Positions 5,151 to 14,538 of a stretch of DNA of 64,000 bases are shown here, piece by piece (positions within the stretch are counted from its first letter, which is position 1; each line of letters starts with the position of its first letter). The stretch is taken from assembly GCA_964639725.1 (NCBI GenBank), contig CAZXFB010000018.1, forward strand, positions 6,054 through 70,053, written 5' to 3'. The translations under genes were made by a program, and so were the position numbers. Under the pieces are notes generated by a model. It ran no database searches and was not told where the DNA came from. It saw only the letters and a program-made list of their open reading frames with translations. This DNA is from an uncultured Rikenellaceae bacterium (GTDB lineage Bacteria > Bacteroidota > Bacteroidia > Bacteroidales > VadinHA17).

Positions 5151-5732
5151 ATGACACATAATGAAATAATAGAACTTATCCTTAAAGGAGATAAGGAAAA
5201 GTTTAGGTTGATTATAGAGGAATACCAGCAAATGGTGTTTCGTACTTGTATGGGTTATGTTCATAACAAAGATGATGCTGATGATCTTACTCAGGAAGTA
5301 TTTATTCAGGCTTATCAGGCATTGACAGGTTTCAGGCAGGAGTCGTCAATTTCAACCTGGTTGTACCGAATTGCTATAAATGCTTCATTGAATAAAGTCA
5401 GGAGGAATTCAAAGAATTTCTTATTCAGGCAGTTGGATCTTATTACCGGAGCAGATAAGAGTGAATATCATGGAATAGATATTACTGATAATGAAAATCC
5501 TGAAAACATCCTTATTAGAGAGGAACATAATGCCTGGATTCAGAAGGCACTTGATAGTCTTCCAGAGAATCAACGAACCGCAATTGTCCTTAGCAAGTAT
5601 GATAGCCTGTCTCAAAAGGAGATAGCTGAAATTATGAAAACAACTGAAGGAGCAGTTGAAGCTTTGATTCAGAGAGCGAAAGCCAATCTGAGAATAAAAA
5701 TGACATCAGGTATGAAAAAAAACAGAAAATAA
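5151..5732 (+). CDS. ECF-type RNA polymerase sigma-70 family factor
   Basis: Region 2 (DADDLTQEVFIQAYQAL, STWLYRIAINASLN) and region 4 (LPENQRTAIVLSKYDSLSQKEIAEIM). Confidence 0.9.
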   Translation: MTHNEIIELILKGDKEKFRLIIEEYQQMVFRTCMGYVHNKDDADDLTQEVFIQAYQALTGFRQESSISTWLYRIAINASLNKVRRNSKNFLFRQLDLITGADKSEYHGIDITDNENPENILIREEHNAWIQKALDSLPENQRTAIVLSKYDSLSQKEIAEIMKTTEGAVEALIQRAKANLRIKMTSGMKKNRK

Positions 5733-5776
5733 CCATAGGAAAAAAATAAGTTTTGTTTCTAATCTATAAAATCAGT

Positions 5777-6211
5777 ATGATGAACTGTAAGTTATGTCAG
5801 AGTGAACTTGAAAATTACCTGGAAGGAAACTTACCTGATGGTAAAAGGTCACTGTTAGAACAACATCTAGATCAATGTGATACCTGTTCTGAAACTTTAA
5901 AGCTTCTACGACTTGCTGATAACGTAATCGATATAGAGAGAAAAAGTGAATCCAATCCATTTCTTGCAACGCGTATTATGTCTGCAATTGAGGAATTAGA
6001 ACAAAAACAGAGAAAACCTGTTTATTATCCACTTTTTGGTAAAGTGCTGAAACCTGTACTAATAACTGCTACCTTAGCAATTGCATTGCTTCTTGGTATT
6101 GTTGCAGGTAATTTAGGACGTCCAACCATTCTTTCTTCGCAGATACCTGATGAAATGATTTATATTAATGATGCAAATATTGAGTCATTGGCTCTCTTTT
6201 TAATAGATTAA
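5777..6211 (+). CDS. Anti-sigma factor, zf-HC2 type, single TM
   Basis: CKLCQSELENYLEG...HLDQCDTC zinc-finger motif and TM segment VLITATLAIALLLGIVAG. Immediately downstream of the ECF sigma gene. ATG at 5777 preferred over the track start at 5753. Confidence 0.75.
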   Translation: MMNCKLCQSELENYLEGNLPDGKRSLLEQHLDQCDTCSETLKLLRLADNVIDIERKSESNPFLATRIMSAIEELEQKQRKPVYYPLFGKVLKPVLITATLAIALLLGIVAGNLGRPTILSSQIPDEMIYINDANIESLALFLID

Positions 6212-6217
6212 AAAAAC

Positions 6218-6775
6218 ATGAAAACAGAAAAGGGACATTCAATATTAATTTGGGCAGTAGTTGCACTTGTGGTTCTTAATCTTTCAACACTGACTACTAT
6301 TTTTTTACAGAGGAAGGCTGATTCAACAAAATATATTGGTAAATCAGATCAGGTAAATCTGACTGCTCCACCTCAGTCAGAAAAATTCAGCGGTCGGTAT
6401 TTCAAAGAAAAATTGAATATGACAACTGTACAAATGCGTGAATTCCAAAAATTTAATCCTGAATTCAGAAATGAAGCCAGGGCTACCAATGTAAGGCTGG
6501 CAAAACTGAGGGGTGAAATGCTTAACGAAATGGCTTCACCTGAAACTGATACATCTAAACTAAATGCGCTATCAGATTCAATAGGAAATTATCATAGTAG
6601 ATTGAAGAGGATTACTTACAAGTACTATCTTGATTTAAAAAGCATCTGTAATCCTGATCAAAAGATACAACTCAAAGAACTATTCAGTGATACTTTTAAC
6701 AGCGATGGTCCAATGGGTTCCCAAAACGGAGGTAGCAGAGGAGGAAGACAATTTAGAGGTGGGTTTAAGAATTAG
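6218..6775 (+). CDS. Periplasmic Spy/CpxP-like (LTXXQ-type) protein, third gene of the ECF sigma operon
   Basis: N-terminal TM/signal anchor; helical region with MTTVQMREFQKF (LTXXQ-like); G/R-rich tail. Position after sigma/anti-sigma is typical of periplasmic heavy-metal-sensor-like proteins. Confidence 0.55.
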   Translation: MKTEKGHSILIWAVVALVVLNLSTLTTIFLQRKADSTKYIGKSDQVNLTAPPQSEKFSGRYFKEKLNMTTVQMREFQKFNPEFRNEARATNVRLAKLRGEMLNEMASPETDTSKLNALSDSIGNYHSRLKRITYKYYLDLKSICNPDQKIQLKELFSDTFNSDGPMGSQNGGSRGGRQFRGGFKN

Positions 6776-7781: not shown

Positions 7782-8138
7782 ATGATTATGAAAACAAAAT
7801 TATTTCTTGCAGGATTTGCTTTAATAGCAATTGCTTCGATCGCAAACGGACAAAACACAGAAACAGGAAACAGGCAGGTAAACACTTCTGGGAAAGGTGT
7901 ATCATATGTCGATGAAAATAAAAACGGGATATGTGATAATTTTGAAAACAATTCAGGTACCACACAGTCAACTCAAGGTAGGTGTTATTACTGGAGAGTA
8001 AAAGGAAATGGGAATGGTCAGGGAAACTGCTGCGGAAGAAGTAATGTTGCAGCACAAGGAAGAGGTAAGGGCAAAAATTTTGTAGATAAGGATAACAATG
8101 GTGTCTGTGACAATTTTGAAAGCAGAGATCAAAAATAA
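7782..8138 (+). CDS. Small secreted protein with two Cys-containing EF-hand-like loops (hypothetical)
   Basis: Signal peptide MIMKTKLFLAGFALIAIASIANGQ. Two copies of [YF]VD[EK][ND][KN]NG[IV]CDNFE (aa 42-55 and 100-113), separated by a G/N/C-rich linker. Confidence 0.6.
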   Translation: MIMKTKLFLAGFALIAIASIANGQNTETGNRQVNTSGKGVSYVDENKNGICDNFENNSGTTQSTQGRCYYWRVKGNGNGQGNCCGRSNVAAQGRGKGKNFVDKDNNGVCDNFESRDQK

Positions 8139-8274: not shown

Positions 8275-9021
8275 ATGAAAACAACGTTTAAAACAATAGC
8301 AATAGTCAGTTTTTTAACATCTTCCGTAATACTTACACATTCTTGTGAAAAGAATACAAATAGCGACGGTTCAGATATGTTTGCACCTTTCCTATCTGTT
8401 TCAGCCGATGGTACTTCTTCAATAATTGAAGAAAAAATGCTTCAGGCGTTGATGGTAACAGCTGTCATTACAGATGATGAAACCAACTCACTGGTAAATA
8501 TGAGAGAAGAAGAGAAATTAGCCCGTGATGTTTATTATGCTCTAAAGGAGAAATGGGGAAATATTACATTCACCAGAATTTCAATAGCTGAGAATAATCA
8601 TATGACAGCGCTTAATACCCTTCTGAAAGCCTATGGTTCGTCAGATACAGTGATCACTGAGAAAGGAGTTTTTACTAATCAAAAGGTTCAGGAACTTTAT
8701 AATGGACTTGTTACCAGTGGATCTGTATCACTTATTGATGCATTTAAAATTGGTGCACTTATTGAAGAAATGGATATAAATGACATTCAGGATCTACTCA
8801 ACACAACAGATAACGAGAATATTAAGATGGTTTTTGACAATCTGGAAAGAGGATCGCGAAACCACTTAAGGGCATTTACACGCCAGCTTAAACTTAATGG
8901 ATTGACATACAACCCTGTATATATAAGCCTGGAGGAATATAACAGCATTATTAATAATCCTGTTGAAAGCGGCAATCATTACCGTATGAACAGGAATGCG
9001 GTATGTATAAGAAATAATTGA
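8275..9021 (+). CDS. DUF2202-like ferritin-fold lipoprotein
   Basis: Lipobox-like LTHSC. MREEEKLARDVYYAL...IAENNHM...IEEMDINDI...ERGSRNHLRAF pattern of paired E/H-containing helices. Confidence 0.6.
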   Translation: MKTTFKTIAIVSFLTSSVILTHSCEKNTNSDGSDMFAPFLSVSADGTSSIIEEKMLQALMVTAVITDDETNSLVNMREEEKLARDVYYALKEKWGNITFTRISIAENNHMTALNTLLKAYGSSDTVITEKGVFTNQKVQELYNGLVTSGSVSLIDAFKIGALIEEMDINDIQDLLNTTDNENIKMVFDNLERGSRNHLRAFTRQLKLNGLTYNPVYISLEEYNSIINNPVESGNHYRMNRNAVCIRNN

Positions 9022-9625: not shown

Positions 9626-9656
9626 AAAATAAAAATCCCGCAGATTTCTGCGGGAG
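9626..9656 (-). terminator. Rho-independent terminator downstream of tRNA-Ser
   Basis: TCCCGCAG (9636-9643) / TGCGGGA (9649-9655) hairpin. On the minus strand it is followed by TTTTTATTTT. Confidence 0.7.
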
Positions 9657-9668
9657 TAATTTGTATCT

Positions 9669-9756
<88 letters not shown>

Positions 9757-9784: not shown

Positions 9785-9792
9785 CAAAAATA
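9785..9792 (-). promoter_or_regulatory. Bacteroidota-type -7 box (TATTTTTG) upstream of tRNA-Ser
   Basis: Exact match to TAnnTTTG on the minus strand, 29 nt upstream of the tRNA 5' end. A second exact match, TAATTTTG, is at 9812-9819. Confidence 0.4.
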
Positions 9793-9827
9793 GTCAAACA
9801 ACTATAAAGCGCAAAATTATTTTCTTT

Positions 9828-12113
9828 TTATTTCAACCCTTTTATCAGGGTACTGAATAACTTAAAATTCTCCATACTTTCCTCATCCATATCGTTTAAC
9901 GAAATTACACCGGCTTTAACCTCAGACAGGAACTTGCTGAGCATGAAGTTTCGGGGAAGTTCTTTATCTTTCATATAAACAGAATTTGGAACCGTAATCC
10001 CCTCACGGGTTTTCAGAATATGGTTTTTAAAATCAAGGGTTGAGAGCATATCTTCAGCGTTAAGCATCTCTTCCGGCATCATTAACAATAATTCACTCTC
10101 GCTCGATTCAGTCTTGTACATCTTTTGACTCAGAAAATCCGCCATTGCTATCTCCTCATCATTTCTGAATAAAACTACAGCAAATTTTAGTCCCCAACCC
10201 ATCAGAATATTACACATTAATGGAATGGATGAAACTTCTGTAGATGGAATAAGGCTGATTTTGCCCTTGAAACCGGTAAGATTAAGCAATGCTGTAAAAA
10301 GATAAAAAGTTCCTGTATCATTAACAATAAGATTCAATCTGCCCGAAGCAAAACCTTCCGAGGATAGAGGATTACCCATGATACTTTGCAGTGGTGTCAA
10401 CGTATCTGGAGTAGCCGATGAGAGCCTTAACGGATCAAGAATCCTTGTATTGCTTCTGAAACAATCAAGGTCATCTCTCTGGATGGCCAAAACCCTGTGA
10501 AGCTTATTAATATCAACCAGATGAGGTGAATGAGTAGTGTAAATGATCTGTATTCTCTCCTTAATGTCCTCAAATACTTTAAGGACATCTTCCTGGGCTC
10601 TTGCATGCAGACTTACTCCCGGTTCATCAACAAGAAGTACCATAGGTTTGTTATTCTGTGATGCTGATGCTTTCAACTCCATATAAAATGAAATAAACCA
10701 GCGTACACCACGGCTTCTTTGTTTAGGATATAATCTTTCTCCTTCATCTTTTATCCAGAATTCAAGATAAGGCTTCCCTGCTTTTTCTTTATACGTTGAA
10801 TTATAATGTTCTAATTCAAATTGTATCCTTATCTTGTTATTTCTGCCGATTGACTGTTGCCAGAAATCATGAAAATTAAGAGTCAGTGTTTGATTCAGGT
10901 TTTCAATTTTCTGCTTCAGAATACGGCTTGAGGGCTGCTGAAAGAAAGAGTAATCAAGATGAGCTATTGTCAGAAAATTTCTGGCTGCCTTATAACCTTC
11001 CACCTGGTCATTACCTGTAATAATATCTTCCATATCAATACGGTTGGGTAAAAGGCTTCCAAAATCTTCAAACATCTCAAAGACAGGACAATATTCAAAA
11101 TATTTTTTACCAAGAATGTCGCTGTTAAACTGGGATTTGTAAGATTGAATAACATTATTAACCTTCTGCTCTGCCTCAGGCTCTGTACTACCCTCCATTA
11201 TATATCCCGATAAGGCAATATGCCTGTCAAGTTCCGACTTTATCAAATCCCTCTCAATCCGGGTTTTTCTGTAATCATTAAGAACACTTTTCCACTCCTG
11301 ATCATCATCATCATCAACTGGTCGCATCAGGAGAGTCATTTTCTGGTGACGCTCCTCAAGTTTTAATGAAATGTCACCAAAATGATTCTCAAGCGTCGTA
11401 CATTTTTCCAGAAGTGCTTTCCATTTTTCACCAGCCATTTTCATAGATTGCTTCTTCGACAATTCCTTTGTGATTTCTTCCTTTTTGTTTTGAAGTTCAG
11501 TAAGACGGGCTTTTAATTCGTTATAATCAGAATTTTGAGGGACAATAAAAAAAGGTGTCTTCTTTGTAAAGAGATGGAAACCTTTTCTCCTTACCTCTGG
11601 AACCGGTATTTTAGATCTGATCTCTGATTCCCTCTCTTCCAAATCAATAAGACTCAACTCAAGATCATCAATAAGATTCAATTCTCCTTCAAGTTTTATA
11701 GTTACATCCCCGAGATATATTCTCCAAGCATTCTCCAGAGAATCAAGATATTGACTTATTTCCCCACTGACTTTGATTACTGATGAAAGGTCAGCAATCC
11801 AATCGCGGGTTAACTCGATATGAGAGAGACCCGACAACAATTCTTTCAGTTCTGTTCCAGGATTATTTGTAACTTTCAACAACCAACCTTCAGGAATGCT
11901 AAAACGACAGCTCACTTGTGGCAGAGAAAGGTCACTGCGCAATACATCTTCTGAAATAACTCCTGAATAAAATGTTTTTAATCCTTCCAGCACAGATGTT
12001 TTACCTGATTCATTCTGTCCAATAAGACAAGTTATATTATCGGGAGAGAGTGTTTGCCACCCGGTATCTACTATTGAACGGAAATTTCTGATCCTGAATG
12101 CAGAGAGTTTCAT
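9828..12113 (-). CDS. ABC/AAA_15-type (OLD/AriA/GajA-like) ATPase with coiled-coil insertion and uncharacterised C-terminal module
   Basis: FRIRNFRSI plus Walker A GQNESGKT (aa 32-39). Charged helical insertion at about aa 120-330. Signature-like SRGVRWFISF (467-476), Walker B VLLVDEPGVSLH (492-503), H-loop TTHS (526-529). An extra roughly 170 aa follows at the C-terminus. Confidence 0.8.
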   Translation of the reverse strand: MKLSAFRIRNFRSIVDTGWQTLSPDNITCLIGQNESGKTSVLEGLKTFYSGVISEDVLRSDLSLPQVSCRFSIPEGWLLKVTNNPGTELKELLSGLSHIELTRDWIADLSSVIKVSGEISQYLDSLENAWRIYLGDVTIKLEGELNLIDDLELSLIDLEERESEIRSKIPVPEVRRKGFHLFTKKTPFFIVPQNSDYNELKARLTELQNKKEEITKELSKKQSMKMAGEKWKALLEKCTTLENHFGDISLKLEERHQKMTLLMRPVDDDDDQEWKSVLNDYRKTRIERDLIKSELDRHIALSGYIMEGSTEPEAEQKVNNVIQSYKSQFNSDILGKKYFEYCPVFEMFEDFGSLLPNRIDMEDIITGNDQVEGYKAARNFLTIAHLDYSFFQQPSSRILKQKIENLNQTLTLNFHDFWQQSIGRNNKIRIQFELEHYNSTYKEKAGKPYLEFWIKDEGERLYPKQRSRGVRWFISFYMELKASASQNNKPMVLLVDEPGVSLHARAQEDVLKVFEDIKERIQIIYTTHSPHLVDINKLHRVLAIQRDDLDCFRSNTRILDPLRLSSATPDTLTPLQSIMGNPLSSEGFASGRLNLIVNDTGTFYLFTALLNLTGFKGKISLIPSTEVSSIPLMCNILMGWGLKFAVVLFRNDEEIAMADFLSQKMYKTESSESELLLMMPEEMLNAEDMLSTLDFKNHILKTREGITVPNSVYMKDKELPRNFMLSKFLSEVKAGVISLNDMDEESMENFKLFSTLIKGLK

Positions 12114-12125
12114 TTAATTCAATCT

Positions 12126-12941
12126 TTAAAATTTAAAACCAAATATCAGGACGTCATCTACCTGAGGAACAGAACCTTTCCATTCCATAAAAGCTTTTTC
12201 AAGTTGTTCCTTCTGATCAACCATTGGTAGACCGGAAAAAGATTCCAGTAACTTTTTAAAGTTCTTGTGTTTAATCTTCTTATCTGACAATTCTCCGAAC
12301 TGATCTGAGAATCCATCAGAGAACATATAAAAAATATCTCCTGGCAGGGTATCTATTTCTTTGTTTGAGAATGCATTTTCCTTTAATGGCGCCAGTCCGA
12401 TTGTCATAAGGTCTGGTTTATATTCAGTCAGTTCACCGTTCCGGATCCTTATTAATGGCCTGTTGGCTCCTGCAAATTGAATTGAGCCGGTTTTAATATC
12501 AATAACACATAAACTTATGTCGATAGTATCTTTTGTTACTGATTTTTCACCAGTCTGATGCAGTGCTTTCATCACCTTTTCTCTCATTATGTTTAAAATC
12601 CTGTTTGCTTTCAGGTTTACCCGCGATTGCAGAATTTCATTCAGAAAACTGATACCAAGAATGCTCATGAGAGCACCTGGAACGCCATGTCCGGTACAAT
12701 CACCAGTAGCAATAAAGACATAATCACGGTTGGAAAAGGCATAATAGAAATCACCGCTTACTATATCGCGTGGCATGAAAAGAATAAAATAGTCTTTAAG
12801 CAATGATCCAAGATAATCAGGGTCAGGCATAAGTGCTTTCTGGATCATTCCTGCATAACGAAGGCTTGCATAATGATCATCCATTATCTGATAACTTGCC
12901 AGAGTAACAGTATCATTGTCAAATTTAAGCTTCGGATTCAT
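12126..12941 (-). CDS. Stand-alone PP2C/SpoIIE-family protein phosphatase
   Basis: IQKALMP, VSGDFYY, TGDCTGHGVPGALM, FAGANRPL, FSDGFSDQ and PQVDDVLIFGFKF motifs. No N-terminal sensor domain. The stop lies 12 nt before the ATPase start. Confidence 0.85.
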   Translation of the reverse strand: MNPKLKFDNDTVTLASYQIMDDHYASLRYAGMIQKALMPDPDYLGSLLKDYFILFMPRDIVSGDFYYAFSNRDYVFIATGDCTGHGVPGALMSILGISFLNEILQSRVNLKANRILNIMREKVMKALHQTGEKSVTKDTIDISLCVIDIKTGSIQFAGANRPLIRIRNGELTEYKPDLMTIGLAPLKENAFSNKEIDTLPGDIFYMFSDGFSDQFGELSDKKIKHKNFKKLLESFSGLPMVDQKEQLEKAFMEWKGSVPQVDDVLIFGFKF

Positions 12942-12980
12942 CTAATTGATATTTCTAACAAAATGCTAAATATACATTTA

Positions 12981-13000
12981 TTTCCTTAATCCAATATCTG
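12981..13000. repeat. Right copy of the 20-nt direct repeat (TTTCCTTAATCCAATATCTG)
   Basis: 19/20 identical to 9139..9158. Lies 40-59 nt upstream of the PP2C start codon. Confidence 0.5.
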
Positions 13001-13078
13001 TAGTTATTTGCTGATCAGAGTTGAAGGTGTAGGAAGTGATTTCAGAGTGTTACCAAGGATCATGGCCTAATCAATTAT

Positions 13079-14467
13079 TTACCTTTTTATAAGAAGAACA
13101 ACATTTTCAACATGATGTGTATGCGGAAACATATCGACAGATTGCATCCGTATCACCTGGTACTTTTCTGAAAGCATAAAGATATCTCTTGCCTGTGTTG
13201 CCGGGTTACAACTTATGTAAACAACCTTTTCAGGAGATGCTGATATTATAGATTTCACAACATCTTCGTGCATCCCGGCTCTGGGAGGATCGGTAATAAC
13301 AACATCCGGTTTACCATTTTCCCGGATAAACTGCTCATTAAGAATATCTTTAATGTCGCCTGCAAAAAATGAAGTATTTTTAATATTATTGATCCTTGAG
13401 TTGATAACTGCATCTTTTATTGCGTCATCGACATATTCAATACCTATCACTTTCCCGGCATTTCGTGCAACATAGTTTGCGATTGTACCAGTACCGGTAT
13501 AAAGATCGTAAACAGTCTCTTTGCCGGTTAAACCGGCAAAGTTTTTTGCAATATGATACAATTTCAGAGCTTGTTTAGTGTTTGTCTGATAGAAAGATTT
13601 AGGTCCTATTCTGAATCTCAAGTCCTCCATCTCCTCAAAAATATGATCTTCCCCCCTGTACAAGATAGGATCCTGGTCTGCCAATGAGTCATTTCTTTTT
13701 GAATTGATAATATAAAAAAGTGAAGTTATCTGTGGAAATTCAGCTGATAAATGATCCAGAAGACCATTCCTTCTCTCCTCCTCATCATGAAAGAATACAA
13801 CAATTACCATAACGTTGCCACCAAGAGTATTCCGGATAACAAGATTTCTAAGAAATCCTGTCTGTTCCCTCAGGTTAAAAAATTTAAGACCTTTTCTCTG
13901 GGCATATCTTTTTACACTATTCCTGATTGAATTCGATGGTTCTGGTTGAAGATGACACTCCTTAATATCCAAAACCTTATCAAATAAACCAGGTATATGA
14001 AATCCCAGGGCTTCCTCTTTCTCATAATCATTGTCAGATCTGATTTCCTCAGTTGTCAGCCAGCGTCTGTCAGAGAATGTGTATTCCAGCTTGTTCCTGT
14101 AATGAAACTCTTCTGAAGATCCTATTATAGGATCGATAACAGGCAATTCTACCTTTCCGATTCTCTTCATTGCATCAATAACCTGTTTCTCCTTATGCTG
14201 AAGTTGCAGCCTGTAAGGAAGGTGCTGCCACTTACAGCCTCCGCATGTTCCAAAATGAGAACATCTGGGGGCTATCCTGTCAGCGGAGTATTCATGATAC
14301 TTGACTACTTTTCCTTCAAGGTATTTCTTTCTCTTTCTTATAACCCTCAGATCAACTATATCCCCTGGAATAAGCATTGGTACAAAAACAACAAGATTTT
14401 CAACTCTGGCCAGGGCATTTCCTTCTGCTCCAATATCTGTAATTATTACTCTCTCGAGCAGCGGCAT
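13079..14467 (-). CDS. rlmD: 23S rRNA (uracil-5-)-methyltransferase RlmD/RumA
   Basis: TRAM-like N-terminus, Fe-S cysteines CSHFGTCGGCKWQH, SAM motif VYDLYTGTGTI, catalytic YISCNP. ATG at 14467 preferred over GTG at 14485. Confidence 0.88.
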   Translation of the reverse strand: MPLLERVIITDIGAEGNALARVENLVVFVPMLIPGDIVDLRVIRKRKKYLEGKVVKYHEYSADRIAPRCSHFGTCGGCKWQHLPYRLQLQHKEKQVIDAMKRIGKVELPVIDPIIGSSEEFHYRNKLEYTFSDRRWLTTEEIRSDNDYEKEEALGFHIPGLFDKVLDIKECHLQPEPSNSIRNSVKRYAQRKGLKFFNLREQTGFLRNLVIRNTLGGNVMVIVVFFHDEEERRNGLLDHLSAEFPQITSLFYIINSKRNDSLADQDPILYRGEDHIFEEMEDLRFRIGPKSFYQTNTKQALKLYHIAKNFAGLTGKETVYDLYTGTGTIANYVARNAGKVIGIEYVDDAIKDAVINSRINNIKNTSFFAGDIKDILNEQFIRENGKPDVVITDPPRAGMHEDVVKSIISASPEKVVYISCNPATQARDIFMLSEKYQVIRMQSVDMFPHTHHVENVVLLIKR

Positions 14468-14538
14468 CTCTTTTTTTCTTCCCACTTCCTTTTCTTTCTG
14501 AAATTATTTATACGATAAACTGAAAAAACAAACCCTTG

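Follow-up and report, generated by a model that had tools for sequence, protein, structure and literature searches.

The 64,000-nucleotide stretch of DNA analysed here, hereafter called the window, is part of contig CAZXFB010000018.1 from an uncultured Rikenellaceae bacterium. On its minus strand it carries two adjacent genes, which encode a bare phosphatase of the PP2C/SpoIIE type (271 aa) and an ABC-type ATPase (761 aa). The two open reading frames (ORFs) are separated by a spacer of 12 nt, which indicates an operon, and are referred to below as the cassette (for coordinates, see Table 1). The cassette is flanked upstream by an rlmD-like gene and downstream by a tRNA-Ser(GCT) gene, the sole tRNA gene detected in the window by ARAGORN. 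An earlier reading of the sequence (the original prediction) had described this arrangement with coordinates that proved exact and had proposed that the pair constitutes an undescribed conflict or defence system.

The PP2C is essentially a single domain. The Pfam SpoIIE domain covers aa 73-268 of the 271 residues (8e-19), and the motifs on which the assignment as a bare PP2C had been based (VSGDFYY, TGDCTGHGVPGALM, FSDGFSDQ, and PQVDDVLIFGFKF) are all present in the translation. The metal-binding motifs are intact, with D64 located in VSGDFY and D81 in DCTGHG, followed by DG..DQF and Q.DD, and they are conserved to at least 97% in 62 aligned sequences (61 orthologues and the window protein). 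The median ratio of non-synonymous to synonymous substitution rates (dN/dS), determined like all such ratios below for nine closely related species pairs, is about 0.07. The C-terminal region of SiaA in NCBIfam is matched at 5e-48, below the cutoff of that family, and the closest solved relative is PDB 6k4e (2e-32), deposited as 'putative serine phosphatase', which we take to be the PP2C domain of SiaA, in agreement with the NCBIfam match. The window protein thus falls in the same catalytic subfamily as the PP2Cs of RsbU, SpoIIE, and SiaA. Phosphatases of this type need a regulatory module for switching on, and the window PP2C is without an N-terminal sensor or regulatory domain. In PADLOC, neither the window PP2C (E<=0.1) nor that of the related locus L063 (E<=1e-10) gave a match to a phosphatase model, be it TerY-P or one of the other catalogued PP2C defence candidates. 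In a divergent related locus (L055:3773-7156), a 1127-aa sensor phosphatase composed of a Reg_prop beta-propeller, a Y_Y_Y domain, and a SpoIIE domain is encoded immediately in front of the pair of bare PP2C and ATPase and may point to the source of the stand-alone PP2C.

The ATPase matches the Pfam family AAA_15 over aa 1-533 (5e-24) and also AAA_21, and its translation contains FRIRNFRSI, the Walker A motif GQNESGKT (aa 32-39), a DDDDD run, SRGVRWFISF, VLLVDEPGVSLH, and TTHS. Walker A is identical in 65 of 65 PP2C-linked loci and Walker B identical or nearly so. Both lobes of the ABC head have a dN/dS of about 0.03, and the C-lobe is 86% identical within the clade of the window protein, with motif columns that are invariant in the alignment. 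The helical insertion that had been predicted within the head is also found in the AlphaFold2 (AF2) model (predicted local distance difference test score, pLDDT, 83.3), in which helices are formed by aa 118-168, 195-262, and 272-326, with a low-confidence tip at aa 175-193 and the acidic DDDDD loop at aa 263-271. By its position in the head, the insertion would correspond to the dimerisation domain of OLD proteins. It exceeds that of the short solo relatives (570-650 aa) by about 170 aa and is also longer than that of TsOLD, the class 1 OLD of Thermus scotoductus, and it evolves faster than the lobes (dN/dS of about 0.12; identity of 47% among members of the window clade and of 14% between clades).

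The original prediction had placed the ATPase among the OLD, Gabija, and PARIS proteins, and the structural comparisons agree with this placement. With the full-length AF2 model, the top Foldseek matches are GajA (8u7i_A, 3.6e-11) and TsOLD (6p74, 5.4e-11), aligned over 817-840 columns, and TsOLD is also the best sequence match in the PDB (1.6e-5). The top match in PADLOC is the generic AriA model (6e-26), and the Old model is matched at 9e-22 from model position 269 to 445 of 578, corresponding to the C-lobe through aa 648. A C-terminal extra module had been noted as well; it is present, but it is not anonymous. In an alignment of the window ATPase with 54 homologues of 33-75% identity, the C-terminal consensus reads NNxILEE ... 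VVxDDDxxGR ... GIED, that is, the Toprim Glu, DxD(xxG), and a further acidic pair. When aa 540-761 were modelled separately (pLDDT 81), the top eight PDB matches were all Toprim regions of OLD or GajA proteins, namely BpOLD (6nk8_A, 2e-3, TMt 0.51), TsOLD, XccOLD (6njw and 6njv), and GajA. Judged from alignment and model, the module is an OLD-type Toprim, and the ATPase therefore belongs to the OLD family.

Metal A is coordinated in TsOLD, BpOLD, and P2 Old by one Glu and both Asp residues of DxD; each single metal-A mutation abolished killing by P2 Old, and a triple mutant of TsOLD was 12-15-fold less active (PMC7049728). With residue equivalence taken from the same study, the Glu corresponds to N598 of the window protein and DxD to F649 and N651, while E687 and D688 are kept. 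The window protein thus combines an ABC ATPase with Walker A, Walker B, and H-loop, a helical insertion, and an OLD-type Toprim fold with the loss of the catalytic triad. Conservation extends to the residues that took the place of the triad: in the window clade (49 members, 54-76% identity), position 598 is always N or S and position 649 always F, and 48 members have N at 651, the other being L048 with S. Moreover, the pseudo-Toprim is under strong purifying selection (median dN/dS of about 0.07). The Toprim of the window protein is hence predicted to be catalytically dead but not decaying, and the selection acting on it implies that it is kept for a non-catalytic or altered function. The protein is an OLD homologue by descent, yet should not be classed as an OLD nuclease. 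The database names of the orthologues of this 761-aa protein (P0001-P0120) vary between 'ABC-type ATPase involved in cell division', 'EcfA2 transporter ATPase', 'AAA15 ATPase/GTPase', and 'OLD family endonuclease', and most of them are misleading for a nuclease-dead OLD homologue.

The association of the two genes was analysed in 79 loci obtained by a scan of one genome per GTDB species. All but one of these are labelled as metagenome-assembled genomes (MAGs) of Bacteroidota, mostly Bacteroidales, the exception being L076, which is labelled Patescibacteria; all relatives come from MAGs or metagenomes, and taxonomy labels are those of the records. According to tblastn, the gene next upstream of the ATPase encodes a PP2C in each locus whose sequence extends far enough in that direction. 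The ATPase ORF is full-length in 66 loci, and in 61 of these a PP2C ORF of 230-330 aa ends between -58 and +68 nt from the ATPase start, with a mode of 11 nt. The PP2C is upstream in 61 of 61 scored loci and likewise in the basal metagenome member L180, and it is still found there at 37-42% ATPase identity, where the flanking genes are entirely different (beta-galactosidase, isocitrate dehydrogenase, an ABC exporter, DnaQ-GIY-YIG, and DUF4249). The original prediction had asked whether a PP2C gene is conserved next to the ATPase gene in other genomes, and it is indeed conserved upstream of the ATPase in differing contexts. The pairing goes far beyond chance, and the two genes form a real, conserved, and unnamed module. 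An assignment to a named system was considered and rejected: PADLOC, NCBIfam, and Pfam gave generic (AriA, Old) or sub-threshold matches for the ATPase and SpoIIE/SiaA-like matches, none of them from PADLOC, for the PP2C, and no paper found in the literature search couples OLD/Toprim ATPases with PP2C/SpoIIE.

Clustering of the neighbours within 8 kb on either side in 18 divergent loci revealed no third conserved gene. Two candidates were rejected, a DnaQ-GIY-YIG repair gene that is confined to one genus-level group, and a convergent gene abutting the 3' end of the ATPase gene in two loci (L062:10321-11217 and L066:10256-11152). The latter encodes a 298-aa XerC/D-like tyrosine recombinase, which is either a housekeeping Xer protein or the integrase of a mobile element. 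In partner-switching modules such as RsbU/RsbV/RsbW and SiaA/B/C, the phosphatase is accompanied by its substrate and a kinase. The cassette differs from these: in line with the original prediction, which had seen no such partner, neither a gene for a STAS or SiaC-like substrate nor one for a GHKL-type kinase like RsbW or SiaB is linked to the pair within 8 kb on either side in about 65 related loci, and those neighbours that were analysed with Pfam have unrelated domains.

The wider family was collected by a HMMER scan with aa 340-761 against 1.84 billion cluster representatives (E<=1e-30), which yielded 267 clusters, most of them with proteins of 570-650 aa. These short forms occur in many phyla, keep the E and DxD motifs, and are without PP2C, and their surroundings are those usual for defence genes. 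In the Patescibacteria MAG (JBBTQX010000002.1; L076:5749-12466), a 590-aa short form with intact Toprim lies between an N6_N4 DNA methylase gene (mod) and a ResIII/RE_endonuc gene (res), apparently as an OLD-like gene lodged within a restriction-modification system of type III. Other short forms adjoin a serine recombinase gene or restriction-modification genes of the Eco57I/XhoI type. The 699-aa protein P0188 is encoded between the gene of a 716-aa protein and DUF1156, DUF8426, and DUF499 genes (L176:1-9308 and L177), a setting that looks like a Hma-like system and agrees with the pattern of embedded defence genes, among them the ABC-ATPase-Toprim protein HEC-04 in Hma systems (bioRxiv 10.1101/2024.01.29.577857). 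Nine viral contigs encode distant relatives of 24-33% identity, none of them with a PP2C.

Neighbour-joining placed the PP2C-linked proteins without exception in a single clade, which branches from within the solo forms that have an intact Toprim. Longer proteins (699-806 aa; P0194, P0208, P0212, and P0188) make up another clade, with an intact Toprim and no PP2C, by which the idea that a long coiled coil always implies a PP2C was rejected. Among the PP2C-linked proteins, an intact triad is restricted to a subclade of 772-aa proteins, and E/DDD is found in eight of 65 GTDB loci. In at least five PP2C-linked subclades the triad has been replaced in different ways (N/F.N, K/FGN, E/GN., E/S.., Q/FNG, P/IGQ, and E/PDT). 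Since triad decay is concentrated in the PP2C-linked clade, nuclease loss was frequent after recruitment of the PP2C and rare without it. The defence ancestry of the module is well supported.

These data also bear on the possibility that the ATPase is a housekeeping DNA-repair protein of the RecF/RecN/SbcC kind, to which the PP2C would be functionally unrelated. The genomic context in the window is a housekeeping one, and there are weak N-terminal matches to SMC_N, RecF, and Rad50. However, these matches cover only the first 45-60 residues and lie far below the cutoffs (33.8 bits against 172 for RecF and 18.8 against 700 for Rad50, with only aa 1-47 aligned), whereas over the full length OLD and GajA are matched best, the protein has an OLD-type Toprim at its C-terminus and is nested among OLD-like short forms, and the PP2C stays linked in all 61 scored loci across changing contexts. 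A repair protein is thus highly improbable, and the ATPase stands outside RecF/RecN/SbcC, as the original prediction had assumed.

OLD proteins have been divided by gene neighbourhood into five classes, which comprise solo genes (class 1), those with a UvrD-like helicase (GajB), those with a retron reverse transcriptase, those with split ATPase and nuclease, and those of Sulfolobales with a membrane protein (PMC10568477; PMC12796447). None of the classes fits the cassette, in which the sole conserved neighbour is the upstream PP2C and which has no helicase, reverse transcriptase, separate Toprim, or conserved membrane-protein gene. By descent, the window ATPase is closest to class 1, represented by P2 Old, TsOLD, and the class 1 OLD of Vibrio cholerae, with which it shares the order of ABC head, helical insertion, and C-terminal Toprim. 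Its short solo relatives keep E / DxD / ED and, in accordance with class 1, stand alone in variable or restriction-modification contexts (PMC10568477), whereas the window protein is devoid of the metal-A triad, has about 170 aa of extra coiled coil and an obligatory PP2C, and is inherited vertically. Its sequence has little similarity to the archetype, and a direct likeness to P2 Old was rejected, because a tblastn search of 50,697 phage records gave one unrelated weak match and none that was P2-like.

The cassette would follow the same logic as PARIS (AriA and AriB), Septu (PtuAB), and HEC-02/03, in that a nuclease-free OLD-like ATPase serves as sensor or scaffold for a separate effector. The cassette differs from PARIS in that the putative effector is a PP2C instead of a nuclease and that the ATPase keeps a dead, fused Toprim. 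No AriB/DUF4435 gene lies beside the window ATPase, whose neighbour is SpoIIE, the AriA match is of the generic AAA_15 type, and phage or satellite carriage as in PARIS was not seen for the PP2C-ATPase pair. A further point of comparison is Cran1, the class 5 OLD of Sulfolobales, which is lineage-restricted, vertically inherited as part of a conserved two-gene operon, and has a cellular role outside defence; it is a potent nickase with a membrane-protein partner and is essential (PMC12796447). The window module shows the same signature of inheritance by which Cran1 was recognised as a non-defence protein (PMC12796447), but it is bacterial, nuclease-dead by sequence, linked to a PP2C, and dispensable.

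The mode of inheritance was deduced from the conserved surroundings of the cassette. The order ABC-F, lipase-like hydrolase, rlmD, PP2C, ATPase, and tRNA-Ser is conserved in about 46 species-level loci. Pairwise distances in 35 species-level genomes gave Spearman correlations of 0.93 between ATPase and rlmD, 0.94 between ATPase and ABC-F, and 0.93 between rlmD and ABC-F, and the mean distance was 0.285 for the ATPase and 0.275 for rlmD. The G+C content of the cassette (0.36-0.38) is that of its flanks. In a subclade with 56% identity (L040:10452-10539), tRNA-Ser(gct) still follows the ATPase gene, but in inverted orientation. At the borders of the cassette, no integrase gene and no att, tRNA-fragment, or direct repeats were found.

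Among orthologues of rlmD in metagenomes, seven in-clade loci comprise three occupied and two empty sites and two that are too short, a sample too small for a frequency of occupancy. At the empty sites (L086:3240-3450 and L090:7402-7601), the cassette is missing, and tRNA-Ser(gct) lies within about 120 nt downstream of rlmD. In the rlmD tree, L086 falls within the carriers, and its empty site therefore represents a clean secondary loss. Directly after the rlmD stop codon, L086 contains TTGAAATAAA, which equals the last codons and the stop codon of the window ATPase; the right border of the cassette thus coincides with the upstream element of the tRNA promoter. An island integrated at tRNA-Ser was considered and rejected, since integrase and border repeats are missing, the G+C content is normal, and the block that the window has in common with the empty sites is just the promoter region of the tRNA. 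The cassette is accordingly ancient, resident, vertically inherited, and dispensable in the window lineage, and it is not an ordinary mobile defence island. This combination of properties argues for domestication rather than for a mobile abortive-infection island. Of the original proposal of a conflict or defence system, the defence ancestry stands, but the window copy does not qualify as a defence island: it is inherited vertically, has a normal G+C content and housekeeping or regulatory neighbours, and is devoid of integrase and att sites.

The pair could nevertheless be a working abortive-infection system against phages or plasmids, in which the ATPase would sense infection and unleash the PP2C, comparable to the release of AriB by AriA, and vertical inheritance would then reflect mere fixation in the window lineage. 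Relatives without PP2C lie in type III restriction-modification (L076) and Hma-like (L176) loci, near recombinase or restriction-modification genes, and on viral contigs; the cassette is polymorphic for presence at one site; an ABC ATPase with an effector acting in trans recurs in PARIS, Septu, and HEC-02/03, and a PP2C-containing multi-gene defence candidate has been listed (both bioRxiv 10.1101/2024.01.29.577857). On the other hand, the pair co-diverges with its housekeeping neighbours at an equal rate in the 35 species-level genomes, no defence or mobile genes are located nearby in the window and the sampled divergent loci, the composition is normal, dN/dS is uniformly low with no sign of diversifying selection, PADLOC has no model for the PP2C, and no PP2C-linked copy was found on viral contigs. 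We therefore regard fixed anti-phage immunity as rather unlikely.

We favour, with a probability of about 0.5, the interpretation that the pair is an OLD-derived two-protein module with an ATP-driven sensor or switch and a PP2C output, which was domesticated in the window lineage. Its ancestors would be class-1-like OLD nucleases that served in defence. Most likely, the 761-aa protein would be a sensor or switch driven by ATP rather than a nuclease; it may dimerise through the coiled coil, and its heads together with the pseudo-Toprim may bind DNA or another ligand. Most likely, it supplies in trans the regulatory domain that the bare PP2C is missing, and the two proteins would interact physically. 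A conformational change dependent on nucleotide and ligand would gate PP2C activity, and the output would be the dephosphorylation of one or more Ser/Thr-phosphorylated targets encoded elsewhere. The domesticated role might be, for example, in stress or DNA-state signalling, just as Cran1 is a domesticated OLD protein. For the physiological role, we give roughly even odds to cellular signalling, which we prefer to fixed anti-phage immunity. The pair is effectively a candidate new OLD class. More tentatively, and with somewhat less than even chances, it might be described as a sixth, PP2C-coupled class, in which an OLD ATPase-nuclease would first have recruited a stand-alone PP2C, the phosphatase would then have replaced DNA cleavage as the output, the active site of the Toprim would have decayed repeatedly, and ATP-gated phospho-signalling would have been domesticated in one Bacteroidales lineage.

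The direction of control within the module could also be the reverse. The original prediction had considered the phosphatase as a reset switch, and the PP2C might do no more than undo a mark set on the ATPase by an unlinked or phage-borne kinase, with non-nucleolytic clamping or bridging of DNA, similar to SMC or Rad50, as the output. Operonic phosphatases often act on the neighbouring gene product, the long coiled coil and the ABC heads resemble SMC, Rad50, and RecN heads in Foldseek, and the conserved pseudo-Toprim could still bind DNA. This reading is improbable and fits poorly with the strong constraint on the PP2C even where the nuclease is dead: there is no conserved Ser/Thr site, T600 of the pseudo-Toprim having been rejected as phospho-acceptor because the position is V, I, or A in several members, a kinase is not linked in any locus, and repeated nuclease loss only in the PP2C-linked clade is better explained by a PP2C that acts as output. 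Because the PP2C is constrained where the nuclease is dead and decay is concentrated in the PP2C-linked clade, the PP2C would be an output rather than a mere reset switch.

Several observations weigh against a domesticated sensor with phosphatase output. No kinase or phospho-substrate was found linked to the pair within 8 kb on either side in the related loci, and the coiled coil, on which docking is proposed to take place, shows little conservation between clades (14% identity). The retained E687 and D688, which resemble metal-B ligands, may allow residual or altered catalysis, and the structural E-values of the C-terminal domain (CTD) are modest, the best being 2e-3. The long-insert relatives P0194, P0208, and P0212 do without PP2C, and the PP2C-linked subclade with intact Toprim implies that the ancestral module may have used both activities. 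As the tree is distance-based, the number of independent triad losses is approximate. Furthermore, the nearest relatives are clearly associated with defence, and dispensability of the cassette (L086 and L090) would also be expected of an accessory defence gene.

Table 1 Features of the PP2C-ATPase cassette and its borders in the window
Feature	Position	Strand	Basis
rlmD-like 23S rRNA/tRNA U5-methyltransferase, upstream boundary (context only)	13079-14485	minus	TRAM and tRNA_U5-meth_tr
Bare PP2C/SpoIIE-type Ser/Thr phosphatase, RsbU/SiaA-like subfamily, 271 aa	12126-12941	minus	ORF, Pfam, NCBIfam, PDB
PP2C-ATPase spacer, 12 nt	12114-12125	minus	ORF coordinates
OLD-family ABC ATPase with expanded coiled-coil insertion and predicted catalytically degenerate Toprim, 761 aa	9828-12113	minus	
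ABC head N-lobe, aa 1-117	11763-12113	minus	Walker A GQNESGKT, nt 11997-12020
Helical coiled-coil insertion, aa 118-330	11124-11762	minus	AF2 helices
ABC head C-lobe, aa 331-545	10479-11123	minus	Signature-like SRGVRWF, Walker B LLVDEPG (D496/E497), H-loop TTHS
Pseudo-Toprim core, aa 590-700	10014-10346	minus	Alignment columns; CTD model
Helical C-terminal tail, aa 701-761	9831-10013	minus	AF2 helices; conserved REGI..NS, PRNF, DEE..N
Two TAnnTTTG boxes (Bacteroidetes -7 type) between ATPase stop and tRNA	9785-9819	minus	Consensus match only
tRNA-Ser(GCT), downstream boundary of the cassette	9669-9756	minus	ARAGORN
G+C-rich hairpin and T-run 3' of tRNA-Ser	9636-9655	minus	Consensus scan

The gene upstream of the cassette was designated rlmD-like because of its TRAM and tRNA_U5-meth_tr domains. 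In the 137-nt spacer between this gene and the PP2C gene (12942-13078), consensus scans revealed neither a TAnnTTTG box nor a terminator, and rlmD, PP2C, and ATPase may therefore be co-transcribed. The two TAnnTTTG boxes downstream of the ATPase gene probably represent the promoter of tRNA-Ser; as neither the sigma-70 scan nor the TAnnTTTG motif showed enrichment, these elements are used descriptively. The neighbours of the cassette in the window include an ECF sigma/anti-sigma operon, methyltransferases, DUF2202, ABC-F, and acyl-ACP thioesterase. The first of these is a three-gene operon on the plus strand (5151-6775) for an ECF sigma factor, a zf-HC2 anti-sigma factor, and a Metal_resist (Spy/CpxP-like) periplasmic protein, and it has no synteny to the cassette in other genomes. 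The DUF2202 gene (ferritin-like, 8275-9021) adjoins a plus-strand gene (7782-8138) for a 118-aa Gly/Asn-rich protein with a predicted signal peptide and two 'NG[IV]CDNFE' repeats, for which no Pfam match was obtained.

OLD-family proteins are among the commonest anti-phage ATPase-nucleases, and more than 1,600 proteins of the family described here at present bear the erroneous annotation 'ABC-type ATPase involved in cell division' or 'EcfA2'. The family offers a natural experiment with three states, a solo active nuclease in defence contexts, a PP2C combined with an intact nuclease, and a PP2C combined with a dead but conserved Toprim, the comparison of which could reveal in what way an immune sensor of the ABC-ATPase type becomes coupled to another effector chemistry, protein dephosphorylation. 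What is surprising is the exchange of the effector for a phosphatase, the repeated loss of the nuclease, and the housekeeping-like inheritance. The module could also provide an example of the domestication of a defence gene, which for OLD proteins has so far been documented only in archaea (Cran1). If the proposed interpretation is true, an immune sensor would have turned into a cellular regulator, and phosphatases of the RsbU/SiaA class would have a new type of trans-acting regulator.

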